DNA of 64,000 bases from Escherichia coli (GTDB lineage Bacteria; Pseudomonadota; Gammaproteobacteria; Enterobacterales; Enterobacteriaceae): the NCBI RefSeq assembly GCF_041248615.1, contig NZ_CP158426.1. One strand, 5' to 3'. How positions within the stretch are numbered: position 1 is the first letter of the stretch; each line of letters begins with the position of its first letter. Below are positions 1 through 12,640 of this stretch, piece by piece. The position numbers were made by a program, and so were the translations under genes. The notes under the pieces were generated by a model, which saw nothing but the letters and a program-made list of their open reading frames with translations, was not told the DNA's origin and made no database searches.

Positions 1-725
1 TTGTTTATCTTGACTGTATCGTCCTGAAAGTTCGGCAGGACAGTCGCATCATCAACAAATCGGTGTTCCTGGCACTGGGCATCAATATCGAAGGTCAGAA
101 AGAACTGCTGGGTATGTGGCTGGCCGAAAATGAAGGGGCGAAGTTCTGGCTCAATGTGCTGACTGAACTGAAAAACCGCGGTCTGAACGATATCCTCATC
201 GCCTGTGTGGATGGCCTGAAAGGCTTCCCGGATGCCATCAACACAGTATATCCGAAGGCCCGCATCCAGTTATGCATCGTGCATATGGTGCGCAACAGCC
301 TGCGCTTCGTGTCATGGAAGGACTACAAAGCCGTCACTCGCGACCTGAAAGCGATTTATCAGGCTCCCACGGAAGAGGCAGGTCAGCAGGCACTGGAAGC
401 GTTCGCTGCGGCCTGGGACAGTCGCTATCCTCAGATAAGCCGAAGCTGGCAGGCTAACTGGCCGAATCTTGCCACGTTCTTCGCTTATCCAACGGACATC
501 CGCAAAGTGATCTATACGACGAATGCCATCGAGTCGCTAAACAGCGTGATCCGCCATGCGATCAAAAAGCGTAAAGTGTTCCCGACAGACGACTCGGTGA
601 AAAAAGTGGTGTGGCTGGCAATCCAGTCTGCGTCCCAGAAATGGACGATGCCGTTGAAGGACTGGCGAATGGCAATGAGCCGCTTTATTATCGAGTTCGG
701 TGACCGCCTGGACGGTCACTTCTGA
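1..725 (+). CDS. IS256-family transposase, C-terminal part (5' end lies outside the window)
   Basis: Frame of ORF 63..725 stays open back to position 3; translation carries IS256/mutator-type transposase motifs (NEGAKFW, ACVDGL.GF, CIVHMVRNS). Recognised from memory, not searched. Confidence 0.85.
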   Translation, partial: VYLDCIVLKVRQDSRIINKSVFLALGINIEGQKELLGMWLAENEGAKFWLNVLTELKNRGLNDILIACVDGLKGFPDAINTVYPKARIQLCIVHMVRNSLRFVSWKDYKAVTRDLKAIYQAPTEEAGQQALEAFAAAWDSRYPQISRSWQANWPNLATFFAYPTDIRKVIYTTNAIESLNSVIRHAIKKRKVFPTDDSVKKVVWLAIQSASQKWTMPLKDWRMAMSRFIIEFGDRLDGHF

Positions 726-1044
726 GAAAAGGCATTTACACAGAATCCTAAACAGGCTCTACGACATGGCTATTCCGTATGAACCATACGGAGATTTAAC
801 CATGGCACATTCTTTACCATTCCTTCCGGCAACCGATACAGCACATCCTCCGATGTCCATCCCTGCCTGCTGACAGTTTTTTACGCCGGAGGGCCATTGT
901 GTGACAACCACAGTGCTGTAACAGCAACCAGCCTGCTTTACCCAAACTCCAGTCCAGATTTTAACTGAACCGCCATTCACACCCTGACCACACTGCCCGT
1001 ACCGGGACAGCTGTTGCCTGCGTGTCGTCTGGCTGCTGAGGAAT

Positions 1045-1434
1045 ATGACGATGTACGCAAAATCCTTTATTGCATTTGATGGCAACGGGCGTCTGACGGG
1101 TGCCCGTACCGCACAGACTGCACCTTACGATCGCTACACTTGCCACCTTTGCGGCAGTGCGCTCAGATACCACCCGCAATACGACACTGAGCGTCCCTGG
1201 TTTGAACACACTGACGACGGGCTGACGGAGCACGGTCAGCAGTGCCCTTATGTCAGACCGGAACGCAGGGAGATACAACTGATTAAGCGTCTGCAGCAAT
1301 TCGTACCGGATGCCTTACCCGTGGTGCGTAAAGCCAGCCGGCACTGCAGACAATGTCATCACGATTATTATGGGGAGCGGTACTGCACGCACAGCCATAC
1401 CGGGCACTTCAGTGAGGAGGGGGTGGCAGAATGA
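1045..1434 (+). CDS. hypothetical Cys-rich zinc-ribbon-like protein (129 aa)
   Basis: ORF with CxxC-x13-WFEH motif and a second Cys/His cluster (CRQCHHDYYGERYCTHSH); GAGG 3-4 nt before ATG 1045, alternative ATG at 1051; stop overlaps start of next ORF (ATGA). Confidence 0.5.
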   Translation: MTMYAKSFIAFDGNGRLTGARTAQTAPYDRYTCHLCGSALRYHPQYDTERPWFEHTDDGLTEHGQQCPYVRPERREIQLIKRLQQFVPDALPVVRKASRHCRQCHHDYYGERYCTHSHTGHFSEEGVAE

Positions 1435-1856
1435 ACGGTATAAAAACGGGGCTGGGGATCACGCCGGGTGAACACATTATCAGTGCTGATTCTGCGCTCA
1501 GCAGAAATATCCGGCAGTGTTTCTGCCTTTCCTGTCATGGCCGGTTGATTTTGCAGACAGATGCTCAGGGGGCGTGGTTTGAGCACGATTTACATGTCCT
1601 GAGCGAGCAACAGAAGGCAGCCTGCGTGGTGCTGAATCCGGAAAAGTCCCACCCTTACATTGAGGATATGGAGATGTTTTTATCGCCATTACCGGTCGTG
1701 CTGGAGTGGCATTGTGTGATGTGTGAGCAGTTTTTTCATGGGAAGAAATTCTGTGAGGCCTGTGGTACGGGGATTTATTGCAGAGCGGTATGTACGAAGT
1801 CTGTTTACAGCTACCAGCCAGACTTGTTTCAGGACTGCGGAGGTGCGAGTACTTAA
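1431..1856 (+). CDS. hypothetical Cys-rich zinc-ribbon-like protein (141 aa), paralog of upstream ORF
   Basis: CxxC-x12-WFEHDLH motif plus CxxC-x9-CxxC-x4-C-x3-C cluster; start codon overlaps upstream stop (ATGA at 1431-1434), suggesting translational coupling. Confidence 0.5.
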   Translation: MNGIKTGLGITPGEHIISADSALSRNIRQCFCLSCHGRLILQTDAQGAWFEHDLHVLSEQQKAACVVLNPEKSHPYIEDMEMFLSPLPVVLEWHCVMCEQFFHGKKFCEACGTGIYCRAVCTKSVYSYQPDLFQDCGGAST

Positions 1857-2057
1857 TCCGAAATGCCCGACCTGCTCAGGGCGTTCAGAAGTATCGGAAC
1901 CTGCATTTTATCTGGTGTTTCGCACCCACCCCGTTCGTGACACAAAGGCGCGACACCGGATATCCGCAGTCCTGCTTACCTGAATAAAACCCGGGGTATT
2001 GATTGTGTACTGTGGTGCGAAATCGCACCGTGATCGCGGATTCGCCGAATCCGCACT

Positions 2058-2300
2058 GTGGTGTCAACCAACCATACGCGAGAGTCCTCTCCGTATTTAT
2101 CAGTGCCTCAGGACGATTTCTGCATAGTTAATCCAGGGGGCTGCATTGTTTATTTCCCTGCTAATGGACGTGACATCCAGGATATTCATGATCCTGATTT
2201 CCCTGAGCAGTATCAGCGCTTATTGGAGCGTCTGGATTATCAGACGATGCCCGGTACTAAAGCATCAGGCCAGCGTAACTCTGGCTACAGCGGTTTTTGA
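2058..2300 (+). CDS. doubtful ORF (80 aa), possibly a gene remnant
   Basis: ORF begins with GTG, contains no ATG start, no clear ribosome-binding site; same frame as ORF 2328..2894 but separated by two in-frame stops. Confidence 0.25.
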   Translation: MVSTNHTRESSPYLSVPQDDFCIVNPGGCIVYFPANGRDIQDIHDPDFPEQYQRLLERLDYQTMPGTKASGQRNSGYSGF

Positions 2301-2327
2301 CCTGTTGTAACTGTAAGGTGATTTATT

Positions 2328-2894
2328 ATGTATACAGAATCAAATGTTAAGCTTTCCTGTAACGCCCTCTGGCAAAAGTGTGTCCTTGCAACTCTGTATC
2401 GGGCTGCAGCCACACATCCTGAAATTAAATTATTACAATTTAAATTAATACCAGGGCAGGGTATTAATAAGGCCATTCCCTCTCTGATGGCTGATTTTAC
2501 TGGTGAACTGCATAGACTCATTTCTGAATATTTGCAGTGTAAGCGACGTAAAGAGCAATCTGTTGAGCCCACCCCTTTATATTATCTCTGGAGTAGGGAA
2601 GCTGTGGCTAACGATACCACTCCTTATCTTATGGTGCTGCTACTTAATAACGATGTCTGGTGTAAGAGTCGTGAGGTGGTGGTTCTCAGAAATCTGATTG
2701 AGCAGGCGTGGGGAAAAGTATTGGGTGAAGATAACTCCATTACACATCTGGTTGTGTATCCTGAAGTGCTGTCGTTGGTATTTGATGCAGCTAACACATA
2801 CAACGCTGAGCCTGCTGTACTGGAACAGACGGCCCGGGCTTACATTGAATCACATGGTACCATTGAACGTCATCTTGGGTGTAGTGACTTTTAA
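2328..2894 (+). CDS. hypothetical protein (188 aa)
   Basis: ATG preceded by AAGG about 8 nt upstream; moderately AT-rich; followed by a stem-loop at 2911..2938. No family recognised. Confidence 0.45.
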   Translation: MYTESNVKLSCNALWQKCVLATLYRAAATHPEIKLLQFKLIPGQGINKAIPSLMADFTGELHRLISEYLQCKRRKEQSVEPTPLYYLWSREAVANDTTPYLMVLLLNNDVWCKSREVVVLRNLIEQAWGKVLGEDNSITHLVVYPEVLSLVFDAANTYNAEPAVLEQTARAYIESHGTIERHLGCSDF

Positions 2895-2910
2895 CGTCAG
2901 GTGATGCATA

Positions 2911-2938
2911 AGGGCCTTTCGCTGAGAGGCCCTGTTTA
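2911..2938 (+). terminator. putative intrinsic terminator after ORF 2328..2894
   Basis: 7-bp stem AGGGCCT/AGGCCCT with 9-nt loop followed by GTTT; T-run is weak. Confidence 0.3.
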
Positions 2939-3156
2939 CACAATTAAATAAATCGAGCCCGACCAACAATTTTGATGTTAACAGCAGGATTATTGAGGGG
3001 CAATCAATGTGTTCTTCGGTAGCGATTACGGTAGTGAACGGACCTGCTGTCTGAATGGCATCGATCCGCAAGCGTATCGGCGCCATATTCTGAGCGTACT
3101 ACTGAAATGGCTAATGGCAGTAAAGAGAGACTTTACGTATATTTGCATAAAGCAGG

Positions 3157-3186
3157 ATTTTACGACTAGTCAACATTCTTTATAAT
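3157..3186 (+). promoter_or_regulatory. putative sigma70 promoter of orphan gene
   Basis: TAGTCA (3157-3162), 18-bp spacer, perfect TATAAT (3181-3186), about 55 bp upstream of ATG 3240. Confidence 0.3.
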
Positions 3187-3239
3187 TCTTCAGGTTCAGA
3201 GTATCTGACATATAGGGTTATGTATTGGGGAGACATTTA

Positions 3240-3941
3240 ATGTTTGGCCATCTGTTACGATACTTTAGTTTCTGTAAAAAAGATTTATTAGTATTTCATC
3301 CTGAATCTGATTACTCAGATAATTTACATAAAGCCTTCTCTTTTACAAAAAGGCTAGGATTTAATGAAGAATGGAATGGGGTCACAAAAAACAAAGAATA
3401 TGATTATCAGGATGTATTCAGTCATGTCTGTCTGCAGTCTGGTGTGACAGACTTTTCCGCTTCAGCAGGACAATGCTTAAAGTGGAGTCATTATTTTCAG
3501 CCATATTTTGAGAATATCCTTGAATGTCGGGTATGGGTTACCGTTGGACAACTCTGGAAACAGGAACGATTTATTTACAATCCGTCAGTTGCGGATTTTC
3601 AGCGCTGGTCTGAAAAAGGGATTCAGCCTGAAGATTTTAGACATCACTCGGGGTTTAACTTTCATGCGTGGTTGACGACGGAAAATGGTGTGATTGTGGA
3701 TGTTTCCTTTATGAGTACGTTATCGCGGCGATTACCTGAACACCTGAGTGAAGTCAGTGGAAGTGTGATTATTGGCACGCCAGAGACGGTTCTTCCTGAG
3801 TATAAATATGTTCCCATGATTGTCGGTCAGAGGATTGTTGAGAAAATAGAAAAACGCTCTTTCATTGGTTTTCTGGCGCACGACGATATTGATTTATATA
3901 CAGTACCTGCAATCTTGGTTCCGGTATGGAAAGAATGTTAA
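3240..3941 (+). CDS. hypothetical protein (233 aa), AT-rich orphan cargo gene
   Basis: ORF 3225..3941 starts at TTG; in-frame ATG at 3240 sits 6 nt after GGGGAGA. Sampled stretches are clearly AT-rich versus neighbouring core genes. No family recognised. Confidence 0.55.
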   Translation: MFGHLLRYFSFCKKDLLVFHPESDYSDNLHKAFSFTKRLGFNEEWNGVTKNKEYDYQDVFSHVCLQSGVTDFSASAGQCLKWSHYFQPYFENILECRVWVTVGQLWKQERFIYNPSVADFQRWSEKGIQPEDFRHHSGFNFHAWLTTENGVIVDVSFMSTLSRRLPEHLSEVSGSVIIGTPETVLPEYKYVPMIVGQRIVEKIEKRSFIGFLAHDDIDLYTVPAILVPVWKEC

Positions 3942-4260
3942 AGCACGGAATAACACTATGCACTTACCGCTTTCCGGAACTCAGCTTGTTACCTGAGCGG
4001 TCAACAGAGCAGTCTTTCAGTGTCTGCACTTGGTTGCCACTAAACCGGAGTCATTTATCAGAAGTATATGTTCATGGAAGGATATTGTCAGCGCCAGTGA
4101 TATAAGACGGTAATGAGGATAGCCACCCCGCATGGGTTTCCTCAACACTGGTCACTGTGACAAGCGCACCATGATCGTCTTTGTATCGCTGATTGACTTT
4201 CGATAATAGAACATCTTCTGACATAAATTTTAGTACGGTAACAATTAACTAAATTTTCAT

Positions 4261-4527
4261 GTGGTAGCACTGAATCAGGAGACTGCGTTTCCTGATGTGT
4301 GCTTCTGCAGCCGTTACCGGATACAGACTTCGATACCAGTTACTTCGACATCCGCCATGTGTCCTGGGACCCGCTATAACGAAGTTGGAGGTAATCAGTA
4401 CAGCGTTCCCGAAATGCTGTGTGGTCAGCCAGTCTCGATACGAATATCGCTGAACGATGAGTTGCGGATCTACAGTAATGAGAAACTGGTGGCCTCACAT
4501 CGCCTCTGCTCAGTGTCGTCTGGCTAG
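4261..4527 (+). pseudogene. transposase C-terminal fragment (IS21 IstA-like?)
   Basis: Short ORF with C-terminus resembling transposase tails (ELRIYSNEKLVASHRL); weak, from memory only. Confidence 0.3.
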
Positions 4528-4671
4528 CAGATAGTACCGGAACCTCACGCCCCGCTCTGGCAGCAGATCAGTCAGGTGGAACATCGACCACTGAGTGCCT
4601 ATGAGGAGCTGTTGTGATGCATGTGTCAACGACGGATGAAAGTGGCTCTTCCGCAACCTGGGTGGAGATTT

Positions 4672-6098
4672 TCATGCCAGTGGACTCATTACCCTCTGCC
4701 TGAGTAGTTCAAATCCTGCTCGACCATACATCTGGCGTTTCAGCATCTTCAGGCGATTTACATGACCTTCGACAACACCATTACTCCAGTGACTACTGAT
4801 TGCCTCACATATAGCTGCAGCATCAGCTTCCATCCCCGCCGCCACGCGCCGAAATTCTGCTGAACCGCTTTCGTGGACTCGAGTGAACCAACTGCTTAGC
4901 TGTGATTTATTTTGGGTTTTCAGAATACGGTAGAACTCGAGTGCCAGTTGCTGCGCTATTTTCAGCTCAGGTTCTTTTTCACACATCAGACTAATAAATC
5001 GGGAAGCATAATTTTCTTCATCCCTGGTTATTCTCCAGGGCATCAACCAGCGGCTTACCCGGGACACTGAAGGAAGTCTGACGGCAGTAGTAACCGGTGG
5101 GTTCCAGCCTTTACGCCATTTGGCAACCGCATCCCTGACGATGGTTTCACTGCCTGTAAATCCCCGGGCCACCATTTCCCGCCATATCCGGCTGGCGTTA
5201 TAATTACCACTTTCTCGTTGCTCTTTTAACCACTCCCTCCATGGGTCCAGAAGCCCTCGCTTTGGCGGTCGGGTTGACATTTCAGGGAATGTTCCTGAAC
5301 GCACCCAGCGACTGACTGTCACACGCGACAGGCCTGTAATACGGGATATTTCCCTGAAACTACATCCCTTGTTATGCAGGGCCATAACCTCTGTCCAACG
5401 CTGATGCCGTTTTTTGCGGGTTTGTTGTTTTAGGCGTTCCGGACGACGGAGCGATGCTGCAGGCACAGATGGTTCTGGATCAGGTGATTTCTTTGGTGAC
5501 AACTCACTGGCAACAAGACGTATCAGAGGTATATGTCTATACATCATTCGTTCAGGCGCATCGCCAATATTTTTTAGCAGATGCCATCGATCGGCCACCT
5601 GTCTGGCCTGAGGTGCACCTTCACGTGCTGCTGTCGCATAGACTCCACTGCGATCACGCGAGACAATCTGTATTTCCGGATATTTTCTGAACCAGGTCGC
5701 CAGCGTACGCTGATCACGGCCGGGAAGCAGGACGAGGGGACGGTGAGTATCAAGATTGACGATTAACGTACCGTAACGGTGGCCCCGATGCCACGCCCAC
5801 TCATCAATACCGACATGAGGCGAGCCTGACTGTTTCGTCTCCGGGGTATTGATAACCCTGCGAAGGAGAGTATCAGCACTGCAACGGAGACCCACTGCCG
5901 TTGCTGCCCGTTTCCCGGCCTCACCTCCGGCGATTAATCCCAGTTGACGTTGTAAATTTTGTAACGCCTGTGAAGACTGTTGGTGTGAACCGGCGAAGGG
6001 AGCAAGCGACTCGGCAAAAATTTTACGTGAACAAGCCGGGTTACGGCAGTACCAGTGGCGGACAGAAAATACAAGCCATAGCGTATGTCCTGAGCAGG
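4672..6098 (-). pseudogene. ISL3-family transposase, C-terminal ~475 aa, interrupted by IS2
   Basis: C-terminus carries ISL3 signature (SNGVVEGHVNRLKMLKRQMYGRAGFELLRQRV); N-proximal zinc-finger-like RHWYCRNPACSRKIF; ORF runs 12 codons into IS2 end at 6099. Confidence 0.8.
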
Positions 6099-6109
6099 TG
6101 GATTTGCCC

Positions 6110-7015
6110 CTATATTTCCAGACACCTGTTATCACTTAACCCATTACTGGCCTGCTGCCGCAGATATTCCCGTGGCGAGCGATAACCCAGTGCACTATGC
6201 GGATGCCATTCGTTATAATGCTCGAACGCCTCTGCAAGGTTCTTTGCTGCCGTTAACCCGTCTGGTTTAGGCATGATACTGATGTAGTCACGCTTTATCG
6301 TTTTCACGAAGCTCTCTGCTATGCCGTTACTCTCCGGACTCCGCACCGCCGTGTTCTTCGGTTCAAGCCCCAATATCCGGGCAAACTGCCGTGTTTCATT
6401 AGCCCGGTAGCATGAACCATTATCCGTCAGCCACTCTACTGGAGACGCCGGAAGCTCGTTGCCGAAGCGGCGTTCCACCGCTCCCAGCATGACGTCCTGT
6501 ACTGTTTCACTGTCGAAGCCGCCCGTAGTGACTGCCCAGTGCAGTGCCTCACGGTCACAGCAGTCCAGCGCGAACGTGACTCGCAGTTTTTCTCCGTTAT
6601 CACAGCGGAACTCGAACCCGTCAGAGCACCATCGTTGATTGCTTTCTTTCACGGCCACTTTGCCAGTATGTGCCCGTTTCGATGGCGGTACAGCGGTTTT
6701 TCGCTCAAGCAACAGCGCATTCTGGCGCATGATCCGGTAAACACGTTTGGCATTGATCGCAGGCGTACCATCAAGTTCGGCCTGTCTGCGAAGCAGCGCC
6801 CATACCCGACGATAACCATACGTGGGCAGCTCTCCGATAACATGGTGTATACGGAGAAGCACATCCGTATCATCTGAGTGACGGCTGCGGCGACCATCTT
6901 TCCAGTCATCGGTTCGTCTGAGAATTACGTGCAACTGCGCACGCGACACCCGGAGACAACGGCTGACTAAGCTTACTCCCCATCCCCGGGCAATAAGGGC
7001 GCGTGCGCTATCCAC
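6110..7015 (-). CDS. insD: IS2 transposase InsD (orfB)
   Basis: 301-aa [19 protein letters not shown]... matches remembered IS2 InsD. Confidence 0.9.
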
Positions 7016-7338
7016 TTTTTTGCACGCCCGTATTCAACGGCTTCTTTAAGGAGTTCATTTTCCATCGTTTTTTTGCCGAGCAGGCGCTGGAGTTCTTTAA
7101 TCTGCTTCATGGCAGCAGCAAGTTCAGAGGCAGGAACGACCTGCTCTCCTGCGGCCACAGCAGTAAGACTTCCCTCCTGGTATTGCTTGCGCCAGAGAAA
7201 TAACTGGCTGGCTGCCACACCGTGTTGCCGGGCAACAAGGGAGACCTTCATTCCCGGTTCAAAACTCTGCTGAACAATAGCGATCTTTTCCTGTGTAGTA
7301 CGCCGTCTGCGTTTCTCCGGTCCTAAGACATCAATCAT
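6973..7338 (-). CDS. insC: IS2 InsC (orfA)
   Basis: ORF 6973..7383 contains [22 protein letters not shown]...; start placed at that Met (121 aa); overlaps insD as expected for frameshift fusion. Confidence 0.85.
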
Positions 7339-7429
7339 CTGCTCTCCAATGACTAGTCTAAAAACTAGTATTAAGACTATCACTTATTTAAGTGATATTG
7401 GTTGTCTGGAGATTCATGGGGCCAGTCTA

Positions 7430-7569
7430 CCTGTGTAGTACGCCGTCTGCGTTTCTCCGGTCCTAAGACATCAATCATCTGCTCTCCAATGACTAGTCTA
7501 AAAACTAGTATTAAGACTATCACTTATTTAAGTGATATTGGTTGTCTGGAGATTCATGGGGCCAGTCTA
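7430..7569. repeat. perfect tandem duplicate of the terminal 140 bp of IS2 (IRL end plus insC 5' end)
   Basis: 7430..7569 is base-for-base identical to 7290..7429. Confidence 0.85.
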
Positions 7570-7782
7570 ATGTGTATCCGGGATGGATGTTTACCAGAAC
7601 CTTCTCTGTTCCAGTGTGTGGAGTTTTACAGAAGAGGCGACTGTATGCAACTCTTGCCCCGTAACTGTCTTTATTCGTTTCTCCACACTCTCCGGACATT
7701 GTAAATTCCAGATGTGTGGCAGTGTGTTTTTCGTAAATCGTACACAATGCATTTTTACACGGAGTTCAGCCAGTCGTATCAC
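7570..7782 (-). pseudogene. probable N-terminal remnant of the ISL3-family transposase, beyond the IS2 insertion
   Basis: Short frameshifted minus-strand ORFs (7520..7747, 7591..7782) adjacent to the IS2 junction; assignment by position and weak similarity only. Confidence 0.35.
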
Positions 7783-8036
7783 TGAGAGTTTTTTTTCTGA
7801 TTTGTACCACTCATGCAGCAGTGATAAGGAGATATTTTCTCTGTCGGGCCAGCAGGGGCGGTGCCACCTGTTTAGTTTTCTTATGTTTGGTAAAAGAGAG
7901 GCTAAAATATATACAACAGGCGCATGTAATGATTCATATTGTTAATCATTAACCAGTAAGAATTAATGTAGTGGATCGGTAATTCAGGACACCTCGAAAT
8001 CCTGTTAATGTTAAAACAGTGAAAATGGGGTGATGC

Positions 8037-8354
8037 ATGAGCAAAACTCGTCGGACTAAACGCACCTTTTCCCCGGAGTTCAGGCTCGAAGCTATCGAGC
8101 AAGTAGTTAAATACCAGCGCGATGTCAGAGAAGTCGCGCTGGCACTTGAGCTCAATCCTGACCATTTGCGTAAATGGATACGGTTGTATAAGCTGGAACT
8201 TCAGGGTATTGAGCCCGCTGGTAATGCCATACCCCTGAACAGCGAGAAATTCAGCAGCTTAAAAGCGCAGATAAAGCGCCTTGAGATGGAAAAAGAAATA
8301 CTAAAGCAGGCTGCCGTGCTGATGAGCGAAATCCCCGGCAAGCTGTCGCGCTAA
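8037..8354 (+). CDS. IS3-family transposase OrfA (105 aa)
   Basis: MSKTRRTKRTFSPEFRLEAIEQV... with helix-turn-helix and leucine-zipper-like tail typical of IS3 OrfA. Confidence 0.75.
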   Translation: MSKTRRTKRTFSPEFRLEAIEQVVKYQRDVREVALALELNPDHLRKWIRLYKLELQGIEPAGNAIPLNSEKFSSLKAQIKRLEMEKEILKQAAVLMSEIPGKLSR

Positions 8355-8455
8355 TCACACTGCTGAAAGCAAAGCGGCCAGTGCGGATTATTTGTCATTT
8401 ATTCGGTGTTCACCGTAGCGTTTATTACGCGCAGGTGAAGCGTCCTGTTAATGTA
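8355..8455 (+). pseudogene. IS3-family orfB N-terminal remnant (truncated)
   Basis: Reads ...LFGVHRSVYYAQVKRP... typical of IS3 OrfB N-terminus, then ends at the junction near 8456. Confidence 0.45.
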
Positions 8456-8519
8456 TCAGCGCCAATGATATAAGACAGTAATTAGGATTCGGACGATTTC
8501 CTGGACTGCTTTATTATGC

Positions 8520-9229
8520 CAGCCCGCATTGTTGGCGGTACATTTCAGGGATGACTGCACCCAGCGAAAATTTTATACGCCGCTCGTTATACCATCTGAT
8601 GTAAGCATCCACATGCCGCATGAATTTTTCAGGCGTGATACCCAATCATTTACGCCCATAATATATTTCAGTTTTCAGTCTGCCGAAAAAGCCTTCGCAT
8701 GCAGCATTATCAGGCGAGCATCCTTTACGGGACATTGAGCGAATAAGGCCTGCTGTATTCACTCTTTCCAGCCAGGCCAGCGATAATGCCCACCTCTGTC
8801 ACTGTGTATCACCGGTCGTTCGCCAGCATTTAACGTTTCGACAGCGTTATCCAGCATAGTGTTGACCAGTTCAGCATCGGGGCGTGTACTGAGAGACCAG
8901 CTCACAACTTTTCTGTCGAAGCAGTCCACCACCGGTGATAGCCAGACTTTTCCTGCAGGAAGCTGGAACTCCGTGATATCTGTCAGCCATTTCTGATTAG
9001 GTTGCTCCGCCTTAAAATCTCTGGCGATAAGGTTATCCGGAGAAGGTCCGATTTCTCCGCAATATGAGCTGTAGCGGCGATGACGGTTACGGCTGACGAC
9101 AAGCTGTTCCTCCACCATAAGTCTGCGTACAACCTTTTCTGATAGCCGATCCCCCTCATGCCTGAGCATCGCATGCAGGCGACGATAGCCATAACACTGG
9201 TAATTACTGTTAAATATATCTGTCAGCAT
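8520..9229 (-). pseudogene. IS3-family transposase orfB (DDE), frameshifted
   Basis: ORF 8759..9229 has DDE-region motifs (WLTDITEF, HSDRGG); downstream out-of-frame segment encodes SMSRKGCSPDNAACEGFFGRLK. Confidence 0.75.
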
Positions 9230-9337
9230 CGTACGTATCGTGGCGTATTTATCACTGGCTTTCAGTGCAGCCCGGTGATAAAAATAACTGCTACGGGCAA
9301 GGCCCAGAACATGCAGTAATTCTGTCAGGGGATATGT

Positions 9338-10041
9338 TTATCTCAGGGCATCAGTAATCTTTGTTTTTTCTCTGTTGTTCAGGTGACTGATGCTGATGCC
9401 CGGGTCTTTTTTTATTATTTCCTCCGCTTTTTTCAGAATATCCAGTTCCATCTGCCGGCGGCGTATTTCCTGATTCAGTCGGGCGACTTCCTCCCGCAAC
9501 GCATCGCGTTCTGCCTCCAGGGAAGGGGCGTTATGTTTACGCATAGTCTGGTAAGCACTGTTGCCGATAATTTCATCTTTCCATTTATACAATACCGCGC
9601 GACTGACACCAATACGCCTGGCGATTTCACTGGCTGATCCTTGTCGTGTACAGAGTACCATGACAGCCTGACGTTTGACTTCTGGTTCAAAGGACGCAAC
9701 CGGATTGGTCTTACTGGTAAATACACGTCGTCTGTCGGGGGAACGTTCATTAACCCAGCGAGCGAGCATATCGGTACAGGGATAACCCAGAGTCCTGCTG
9801 GTAAACGCCAGGCAGCAGCCGTGGTTAAGATAATGTTCAACGGCAACCTGTTTTTGCTCATCGGAGTAACGGTGCTTATGACGAATGGATTCTTTTGATC
9901 CGCCACCTGCTTCCCATGAACGGATCCAACGCCGCAGATTTCTTTTCGAAGGGTAGCCCAGTTCGCGTACGACGGGGCCAGCTTCTTACCATATTTGAAA
10001 TAAAGCTCAATGGTGCGAATTTTTTGTTCTTCAGTAAACAT
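9338..10041 (-). pseudogene. IS3-family transposase orfA, frameshifted
   Basis: MFTEEQKIRTIELYFKYGKK at 10041 then a frame shift; ORF 9338..9769 carries the helix-turn-helix and coiled-coil tail. Confidence 0.6.
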
Positions 10042-10291
10042 GTTTCATCTCCTGAGAGTCCAGGAAATCGTCCGCATCCCCTAACGGTCAAAAATCGTGG
10101 CGTTGATACAGGGGAAATCCGTAGTTTTTGATGCCAGCCATAACGTGTTTGACTATAAAGTATTACGAAAGGACTTTAATGAGCCCCTGGAATAATTCAT
10201 TAAAGTAATTTACTTCGCTATCCTTTTCCCAGTTACTCACAAAGAAAAATATTCATAAAATAATTCCCGGGCTGGCAGCCCGGGATGATTA

Positions 10292-11554
10292 CTATTTTAA
10301 TGGATTGTTAATCTTTGCATATTCAAACGGGCTGATACATTGTTCTCTGTTCGCACCCAGAAAATCTGCCCACCACTGTAGCATCAGTCGACGTTCTTCC
10401 AGATGTTCTGCTTTATGGATATATGCAGCACGTACACCATTACGCTCCTGATGGCTCATCTGACGTTCCACAGCATCGCGGGACCACAAACCTGATTCAA
10501 TCAATGCACTGCACGCCATCGCCCGGAATCCATGACCACAGACTTCCTGGGTTGTGTCATATCCCATCACCCTCAGGGCTTTATTTACAGTATTTTCACT
10601 GATCGGTTTACGCGGGTCATGTGCTCCCGTAAAGATCAGACCATTTTCACCAGCCCATGTCTGTAGTTCTGTCAGTATGGCTACAGCCTGTTTGCTGAGT
10701 GGCACAAGATGTGGTGTTCGCATCTTGGAGCCCCGGTGTGAGTATTTTACGCCTGGCAGAGGTTCGCGTTCGGCTGGAATAGTCCACATGGCATTGTCAA
10801 TATCAATTTCAGACCAGCGGGAATATCTGAGTTCACTGGAACGAATAAAAACCAGTAAATTCAGCATAACTGCCAGTCGGGTGACAGGCTGACCTTTATA
10901 ACCGTCAATACGCGACAGAAGTTCAGGCAGGCGTGAAAGATCCAGAGCAGGGCGATGCTGGCGTTTTACCGTGGTCAATGCACCAGCCATATCCAGAGCC
11001 GGGTTATATCTGATGATGCCAGACTGTACGGCATAACGCATTACAGCAGATATTCTTTGCTGCAGACGACTGGCGATTTCATAAATTTGTTTTGCTTCTG
11101 CAGCACGAACAGGGATAAGCAGGTCCGGGGTATTGAGTGTTGTGATATCCCGGTTGCCGATAAAGGGGAAAACGTGTGTCTCGAGGCTTTTGATTACTTT
11201 ATCGCTGTGTGATTGTGCCCATTGTTTATTACTGGCATGCCAGCGTCGTGCAATATGTTCAAAAGAGAGTTGTAAATCAGGGACTACTTTTTTAGCTCTT
11301 TTTTGTTCGCAAGGGTCAATCCCCTCTGAAATCAGTTTTCGGGCCTCATCCCGTTTTGTACGAGCTTCGGAGAGAGAAACTTCTGGATATACACCAAGTG
11401 CCAGAGTCTTCTCCTTACCCAGAATACGATAACGGAGACGCCAGTAACGGGAACCATTAGGATGAACCAGCAGGAACATGCCAGCCCCGTCAGTGAGTTT
11501 ATAAGCCTTGTCAGTGTGCTTTGCAGCCCGGATTTTTGCGTCAGTCAGTGCCAT
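10292..11554 (-). CDS. P4-type tyrosine integrase (420 aa)
   Basis: MALTDAKIRAAKH... N-terminus and length typical of P4/CP4-57-like integrases; about 200 bp from the tRNA-Phe 3' end, same orientation. Confidence 0.9.
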   Translation of the reverse strand: MALTDAKIRAAKHTDKAYKLTDGAGMFLLVHPNGSRYWRLRYRILGKEKTLALGVYPEVSLSEARTKRDEARKLISEGIDPCEQKRAKKVVPDLQLSFEHIARRWHASNKQWAQSHSDKVIKSLETHVFPFIGNRDITTLNTPDLLIPVRAAEAKQIYEIASRLQQRISAVMRYAVQSGIIRYNPALDMAGALTTVKRQHRPALDLSRLPELLSRIDGYKGQPVTRLAVMLNLLVFIRSSELRYSRWSEIDIDNAMWTIPAEREPLPGVKYSHRGSKMRTPHLVPLSKQAVAILTELQTWAGENGLIFTGAHDPRKPISENTVNKALRVMGYDTTQEVCGHGFRAMACSALIESGLWSRDAVERQMSHQERNGVRAAYIHKAEHLEERRLMLQWWADFLGANREQCISPFEYAKINNPLK

Positions 11555-11751
11555 AGTTCAGCCTTCTGAATGCGTTAAAGAGGGTACAAATTCTGTCGAA
11601 CTGGGGTATACCCGCAATTATACCCACACAATGGGGTTGATGTGGGGGGAATCTGGTTGAGTTCGGTAGAATTGATTTGGAGGCAGAACGCTTAAATTGT
11701 GGCGTTCTGAAACGAAAAACGGACCTCCGTGGAGGTCCGTTGATATGAATT

Positions 11752-11827
11752 TGGTGCCCGGACTCGGAATCGAACCAAGGACACGGGGATTTTCAATCCC
11801 CTGCTCTACCGACTGAGCTATCCGGGC
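11752..11827 (-). tRNA. pheV: tRNA-Phe (anticodon GAA)
   Basis: Reverse complement reads GCCCGGATAGCTCAGTCGGTAGAGCAGGGGATTGAAAATCCCCGTGTCCTTGGTTCGATTCCGAGTCCGGGCACCA (76 nt); pheV assigned by yqgA-speC context. Confidence 0.95.
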
Positions 11828-11932
11828 AACGGGGCGCATTAAACCTGATTCGCCTCGTCTCGTCAATCAAATTTCTTCAATTTAGTGCAGACTGCACAAT
11901 CTATCATCACTTTGCCGCTATTGCACACATTG

Positions 11933-12640
11933 TCAGGCAAACCAGGCGGTCCAGGCGGCGGAAAGCGGCATTGCCAGAAGGAGTGCTGGAAGCATGTTGA
12001 CCACCGGGAACATTTTAATACCACAGATGCGTAATCCGGTTGCCAGCAGCAATAAACCGCCTACGGCGCTGAAGTCTGCCATCATCGACGGTGTGGTCAG
12101 CGGTAATATCAGCGCGGCAGCCCACGCCAGTGTTAACTGGATGATCAGTAATGGAATGCTAATCACCGACACCGCAATACCCAGCGAGCAGGCGAAGATC
12201 ATCGCCGTAAAGAAATCAAGAAATGACTTGGCGATTAAAATACTCGGATCGCCGGTCATCCCTTCGTTCATCGCCCCGAAGATTCCGGTGCCGCTGGCGC
12301 AAAACAGAACAATAATCGCGACAAAATTCTGAATAAAAGATTCATGCGCTGGCTTCTTACGCGAGTGGTGAAACAGATTATGCGCTTTGACGACCACTGT
12401 ATTGACGCCTTTTTCCAGCAGACAAATTTCGCCGATTAATGCTCCGAGTAAGGTTGCTAAAACCATCGCCGGAAGGTTGGCGCATTTCACCACCAGTAAA
12501 ATACCAATCCCCAGCGATGCCAGACCAAAAATTGATGTCATGGAGACGCGGATACGTTCCGGTAAGCGTTGGCTAAGGAGTGCGCCGAAAACGCCACCCA
12601 GTAAGACTGCACTTGCGTTGATAAAAGGGCCGATGACCAC
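11933..12640 (-). CDS. yqgA: DUF554-family inner membrane protein
   Basis: 235-aa hydrophobic ORF at the K-12 yqgA position. Confidence 0.85.

Follow-up and report, generated by a model that had tools for sequence, protein, structure and literature searches.

The passage from a tRNA-Phe gene to an integrase gene on an Escherichia coli chromosome raises the question of where the chromosome gives way to the inserted island, and to which of the two a strong hairpin lying between these genes belongs. The locus is contained in a 64,000 nt stretch (the window) that corresponds to positions 960001-1024000 of NZ_LT599825.1 (E. coli NRZ14408). The left 11.7 kb of the window are 100% identical to 960001-971751 of that record, and the DNA to the left of the window was read from it as well (stretches L003 and L004, both to the left of the window start). 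The tRNA gene is complete, is located at 11752-11827 on the minus strand and specifies tRNA-Phe(GAA) (ARAGORN; Rfam tRNA, 68.3 bits). ARAGORN reports it as the sole tRNA of the window, and Rfam finds no RNA family besides tRNA between 11300 and 12100. Its neighbors, yqgA and speC, are those of pheV in K-12, and the locus is therefore pheV, which the earlier note had only guessed. Genome matches are contiguous from the adjacent yqgA into the tRNA, and the window from ~11.9 to 64 kb is ordinary core chromosome running from yqgA to argP. A probable pheV promoter, read from the sequence as TTGACG-17 nt-TTTAAT followed by a GC-rich discriminator, is at 11838-11866 (minus strand); the putative promoter region is chromosomal DNA in common with K-12, conserved relative to the DNA upstream of K-12 pheV. 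A strict promoter scan of 11000-12500 gave no match, either to this putative promoter or to an int promoter.

The first island gene after the tRNA encodes a P4-type tyrosine integrase of 420 aa (intP4; 10292-11554, minus strand, as pheV), annotated as a tyrosine-type recombinase/integrase. Its three Pfam domains all score above the cut-offs (Arm-DNA-bind_3, PF13356, 1.7e-29; Phage_int_M, PF22022, 1.2e-27; Phage_integrase, PF00589, 6.4e-17), and the open reading frame begins 163 nt past the hairpin on the same strand.

The hairpin begins 10 nt past the pheV CCA, on the same strand, at the end of the transcription unit. The tRNA strand after CCA reads AATTCATATC-AACGGACCTC-CACG-GAGGTCCGTT-TTTCGTTTC, in which a 10 bp stem containing six GC pairs is formed by 11741-11732 and 11727-11718, closed by a 4 nt loop (11731-11728) and followed by a T-run at 11717-11710; TTTTTCGTTT is directly 3' of the hairpin. 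Folded alone it reaches -17.6 kcal/mol (z = -5.0, with 0 of 200 shuffles folding as well), and in a 71 nt context -21.3 kcal/mol (z = -4.4). The identical stem forms on the plus strand without a T-run after it, so that as a terminator the structure would be one-directional. A strong hairpin with a T-run on the tRNA strand, 3' of tRNA-Phe and before the integrase, had been described from the sequence beforehand, and ARAGORN, folding and the integrase open reading frame all agree with that description. The parsing given then, ACGGACCTCC-ACGG-AGGTCCGT, has unequal arms and is shifted by one base, but it denotes the identical hairpin. The 10 nt between CCA and the stem form an AU-rich 3' trailer, AAUUCAUAUC (11742-11751, minus strand), which comparison with K-12 pheV and pheU identifies as the first island-derived DNA. 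It differs from the trailer of K-12 pheV (CTAATTCTTA) and is identical to that of K-12 pheU over AAUUCAUAU.

Comparison with an uninterrupted locus places the proximal junction. E. coli K-12 MG1655 pheV is island-free, its attB consisting of pheV followed by CTATTCTAAAGAACCCGCC, and the DNA after CCA reads CTAATTCTTAAGAACCCGCC-CACAA-GGCGGGTTTTTGC. The window is near-identical to K-12 upstream of and through tRNA-Phe, but homology stops at CCA: the window continues with AATTCATATCAACGGACCTC-CACG-GAGGTCCGTTTTTCG and diverges from K-12 pheV at the first base past CCA. Since K-12 pheV diverges at this point and carries another terminator, the tRNA 3' end marks the junction and the hairpin is part of the island. 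The earlier note had placed the island junction here, with the hairpin between tRNA and integrase, and had allowed that it would shift left were the hairpin and the following 200 bp to be identical at island-free loci; they are not identical in K-12, and the junction stays where it was. The only block common to K-12 attB and to the proximal and distal junctions is a core of 23 nt, TTCGATTCCGAGTCCGGGCACCA, which extends exactly from the first T-loop nucleotide to CCA; its proximal copy (attL), identified by shared-block comparison, is the last 23 nt of pheV (11752-11774, minus strand). When positions 11560-12000 were compared with 5,426 complete E. coli genomes, a full-length match was found in 3,040, and the remaining matches, those of island-free genomes, begin at query position 185, 187 or 193 (window 11744-11752) and run rightwards.

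The distal junction lies outside the window, in keeping with the caution voiced beforehand that the window by itself does not suffice to fix the boundary. No second copy of the 23 nt tRNA 3' end, allowing up to three mismatches, is present in the 64 kb of the window, and the same search extended 50 kb leftwards missed the distal copy because that copy carries an indel. It was found by blastn with the K-12 pheV flank together with a fuzzy regular expression, ~22.6 kb to the left of the window start; the earlier note had proposed to look for such a repeated 3' tRNA segment at the distal end of the island. The copy is at L003 12408-12429 (937408-937429 of NZ_LT599825.1) and reads TTCGATTCCGATTCCGGCACCA, a degenerate, 22 nt version of the final 23 nt of pheV in which one G is replaced by T and one G is deleted; it is the only one in the 95 kb searched. 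The full junction reads GAAATT TTCGATTCCGATTCCGGCACCA CTATTCTAAAGAACCCGCCCACAAGGCGGGTTTTTGCTTTTGGATCT, the K-12-type pheV terminator following directly after the repeat and being displaced by ~34 kb. By blastn, L003 12361-12429 matches K-12 from tRNA position 54 to 48 nt past CCA (K-12 54-124) at 94%. The distal segment maps onto the pheV 3' end in island-free genomes, and the full distal junction is present in 1,153 genomes. The distance of the distal copy from the window gives the island a length of ~34.3 kb, and its boundaries are fixed precisely, at CCA proximally (core 11752-11774) and at this repeat distally.

The integrase-proximal part of the island interior occupies window positions 1-10291, continuing past the left window edge (NZ_LT599825.1 annotation), and at least 80% of this stretch is found in only 10 genomes. 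It consists mostly of IS debris and pseudogenes, including IS1414, a truncated ISEc38, two IS3-family copies and a Mu-transposase fragment, and also holds YagK/YfjJ and zinc-ribbon genes; a 90 nt fragment of a phosphoethanolamine-transferase gene is located just behind int at ~10106-10195. Present-day mobility of the island is doubtful, given the imperfections of the distal repeat (a substitution and a deletion) and the many IS elements. Past the distal repeat are an IS110 fragment, a group 2 capsule cluster (kps) and then yghD, from which point the DNA is again homologous to K-12; the kps and IS110 fragment region spans L003 3308-12209 and L004 40289-43426, and ~113 nt of K-12 sequence are missing there. 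As kps is outside the distal repeat, the capsule region is a separate insertion layer beyond the integrase-delimited island, and the two, often lumped together as 'PAI-pheV', can now be set apart.

These features correspond to those of a known island family. In GI-pheV, attL is the last 23 bp of pheV and the attR copies are imperfect (PMC11537424). GI-pheV and PAI-pheV islands (intP4; PMC11537424, PMC7545054) share with the present one the pheV-yqgA locus, a P4-type integrase directly 3' of the tRNA and the 23 bp attL, and likewise have an imperfect attR and Ag43 and yee-type (CbtA/CbeA, DUF4942) modules towards the distal end. Position directly 3' of pheV, an intP4-type first gene, a distal repeat and backbone after attR are all present here. 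Relative to GI-pheV the island is small, at 34.3 kb, and IS-ridden, and its attR, TTCGATTCCGATTCCGG-CACCA, unites the T substitution and the single-G deletion that PMC11537424 gives in separate attR types; on searching, the text of that paper gave neither the combined string nor any match for 'terminator' or 'hairpin'. The segment 11700-11830 is thus the known GI-pheV attL junction, and its arrangement is ordinary and already described. We regard it as highly probable that the region is the attL of a ~34 kb GI-pheV-type island, with a P4-type integrase and the last 23 nt of pheV as core, and that the hairpin is an island-borne terminator.

The hairpin has a close counterpart elsewhere in K-12. 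An identical hairpin follows K-12 pheU, beside the decayed integrase pseudogene yjdQ (L002 1692-2127), and over 43 nt after CCA the window and K-12 pheU have a single difference (TATC in the window, TATA in pheU); stem, loop, U-tract and the AAUUCA RNase E region are identical. The pheU terminator differs in that it sits at the other tRNA-Phe locus and that its adjacent integrase is a pseudogene. Both pheU and pheV are monocistronic with their own terminators, that of pheU being a Rho-independent terminator (PMC5291269; PMC8860583), and RNase E cuts have been mapped in K-12 pheU at CACCAA|A|UUCA (PMC5291269). The status of the window's hairpin as a terminator and the processing by RNase E are taken from this literature, on the near-identical K-12 pheU trailer; by the same analogy, the AU-rich trailer is probably where RNase E cuts the pre-tRNA. 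Of the 5,426 genomes, 5,418 contain part of the island-side sequence, and the K-12 pheU terminator itself appears to be an island relic. The 4 kb stretch around K-12 pheU, which reaches into cadC, contains no distal repeat, so the native pheU terminator was not recovered. The native K-12 pheV terminator has a like job and a like position relative to CCA and is similarly stable, folding to -18.4 kcal/mol, as against -17.6 kcal/mol for the island hairpin; it is of unrelated sequence (CCCGCC-CACAA-GGCGGG), and it survives ~34 kb away in NRZ14408.

A broader comparison is provided by relatives of the integrase. E. coli F1053, which carries a divergent pheV island with ~75% identity here, and three Providencia species have the sequence AACAGACGTC-AACC-GACGTCTGTT-TTTTG after the tRNA, in which the stem has two compensatory pair changes relative to the window, the T-run is kept and the flanks have drifted. 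Over the ~230 nt from tRNA-Phe to the integrase start, this junction is near-identical between Providencia heimbachae, P. alcalifaciens, P. rettgeri and E. coli F1053, which suggests that this island type has recently passed between genera. A scan of contigs for a tRNA end, a gap and the arm motif (see below) gave four loci, in three Providencia species and one MAG, and contributed one further hairpin type from this narrow sample. Integrase relatives from IMG/VR (54-69% identity) beside Leu-like tRNA remnants and tRNA-Asn all have a stem and T-run 10-15 nt past CCA. Twelve distinct junctions with integrases of 54-98% identity and Phe, Leu-like and Asn tRNA targets were aligned; the sequences are related, and several of the IMG/VR contigs have only partial tRNAs upstream and an ambiguous integration state. 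In this alignment 97.5% of cells are paired, and at seven of the ten pairs both positions have changed; the observed score was not reached in any of 500 shuffles, and pairing falls to 28-58% when the register is slid. In one relative (L016) the architecture is alike and the stem unrelated in sequence. The presence of homologous hairpins next to related integrases with different tRNA targets indicates that the hairpin belongs to the int/attP module and not to the chromosomal locus.

Between the hairpin and the integrase, at 11580-11627 (minus strand), there is a cluster of the motif GGGTAYA, made up of two direct copies whose starts are 12 nt apart, an inverted copy and a palindromic overlap; four of the eight matches in the 64 kb window are within the 44 nt from 11582 to 11625. 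In the reconstructed attP, a tandem pair, GCGGGTATAAT-TGAGGGTACA, precedes the core at a distance of ~55-75 nt (L003 12482-12500), and the cluster, GTGGGTATAAT-TGCGGGTATACCCC and then the inverted TGTACCCTC, follows it (window 11580-11627). The motif shifts with integrase subgroup among the relatives, to TGGTAYA, GAGTATA or TGGTAA, and the inverted copy shifts likewise. A short motif on both arms around the core is thus combined with an integrase that has an arm-binding domain, and judged by sequence these repeats are good candidates for arm-type integrase sites, the window cluster lying on the int-proximal arm. In phage P4 and P4-like elements the attP core is at a tRNA 3' end, with int beside attP and repeated arm sites, and P4 itself targets leuX. 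The present element is similar in its arm-binding, central and catalytic integrase domains, its core starting from the T-loop and its short repeats on both arms, and differs in targeting pheV; the likeness is one of general organization.

Three other interpretations of the hairpin have to be weighed against an island-borne terminator. That it is the native chromosomal terminator of pheV, with the true junction further left between hairpin and int, might be thought likely from its location exactly where a tRNA terminator is expected and from the presence of the sequence somewhere in nearly every E. coli genome. The near-universal copies, however, are at pheU, beside an integrase remnant; the same genome retains the K-12-type terminator, behind the distal repeat; and related integrases at Leu and Asn tRNAs have homologous hairpins beside them. 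Compared as sequence, the hairpin has no identity to the DNA downstream of island-free pheV and does not class with the native terminators. With a different terminator at K-12 pheV and homology ending at CCA, the K-12 comparison refutes this interpretation, to which we give almost no credence. Only marginally more credible, and still very improbable, is a chance palindrome or a decaying remnant lacking present function. The island is heavily degraded by IS elements, and although a consensus terminator scan makes a minus-strand call at the hairpin, this single site compares with 1.7 that such a simple pattern is expected to produce by chance in 1.5 kb and is not significant alone. The folding statistics (z = -5; 0/200 shuffles folding equally well) speak against chance, as does conservation of the structure across genera and tRNA targets with compensatory changes. 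No loss of the stem was seen among the otherwise intact pheV or pheU islands compared here, and with its own terminator 34 kb away pheV still requires a 3' end signal.

The remaining interpretation, which we consider improbable but less so than either of these, is that the palindrome acts mainly on DNA, as a site for a dimeric protein (an excisionase, an int repressor or a host factor) or as an att cruciform, with termination incidental. A perfect 10 bp inverted repeat 10 nt from the core, inside attL and attP, would suit such a role; the nearby putative arm-type repeats would mark a region dense in protein sites, symmetric protein sites can mimic covariation, and a GACGTC palindrome is common to the stems of many relatives. 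Against this, pairing has been maintained through free variation of the stem sequence (7 of 10 pairs), the T-run always follows the stem and does so on the tRNA strand only, and L016 retains the same architecture with its unrelated stem. Experimental work, moreover, treats the K-12 pheU copy as a Rho-independent terminator. We thus retain the reading of the hairpin and T-run (11710-11741, minus strand; 10 bp stem, CACG loop and U-tract) as an island-borne intrinsic terminator, to which they conform in stem-loop, U-tract, position and compensatory pairing, in addition to being absent from island-free pheV; that transcripts would end here in vivo is argued by analogy with pheU.

A plausible scenario starts from what the present comparisons established, namely where the junction lies, that the hairpin came with the island, that a distal repeat is followed by the displaced terminator and that the stem is conserved by compensatory change. 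With integration the tRNA 3' end was rebuilt, island DNA replacing everything past CCA, and the native pheV terminator came to lie ~34 kb off, behind the degenerate core copy. Transcription of pheV would then start at the chromosomal promoter and pass through the rebuilt tRNA, with polymerase halting at the island terminator, such that the transcript would end ~35-42 nt past CCA at the hairpin and U-tract; RNase E may cut the AU-rich trailer and exonucleases trim the product to mature tRNA-Phe. Lacking the island terminator, the pheV transcript would enter int on the same strand. Since int is downstream in this orientation, the terminator probably also shields it against read-through transcription starting at the strong tRNA promoter, an insulating role that is pure inference.

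Whether this applies beyond pheV is less certain. On balance we favor the view that the terminator is a conserved, co-travelling part of the P4-type attP/int module, in which tRNA 3' end, RNase E trailer and terminator are placed between the core and the arm sites, keeping the tRNA expressible and int silent, and that the pheU terminator is island-derived too. This generalization draws on the junctions of the relatives, and a literature search for a general statement of attP-borne replacement terminators returned nothing usable. The feature as such is already known, as the attL of a known island family with a terminator known from K-12 pheU, and the current understanding of tRNA-associated islands is unchanged. 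The additions are modest: the pheV terminator here is island-derived, as by extension that of K-12 pheU appears to be, and a terminator supported by covariation extends across P4-type att modules. They show that an essential tRNA gene can owe its downstream processing signals wholly to a mobile element, and suggest that termination of the tRNA transcript together with insulation of int may be a simple reason for the conserved layout.

Among the other features of these junctions, we note that a second inverted repeat, CAGAACGC-N10-GCGTTCTG (11684-11709, minus strand), is predicted in a 196 nt fold directly 3' of the terminator. K-12 pheU retains it with a G-U pair, and one MAG with a single compensatory change; the type-B junction of F1053 and Providencia lacks it. 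A role as part of a tandem terminator or as an RNA element was considered and dropped, as the repeat has no T-run and is not conserved in the type-B junction. At L010 1255-1500 a 98%-identical integrase follows a tRNA-Phe fragment that consists of the 3' 50 nt only, from the anticodon stem, and that PGAP labels tRNA-Ser; a ParA-family gene is just upstream and the arrangement is found in 98 E. coli genomes as well. It has the appearance of a second element, perhaps an ICE, that entered the same tRNA in tandem via a longer identity block. At L011 1150-1330 the DNA ahead of a 69%-identical integrase contains the C-terminal end of a further P4-type integrase gene and a degenerate leuX-like 3' end, which suggests tandem or nested islands at a Leu tRNA.
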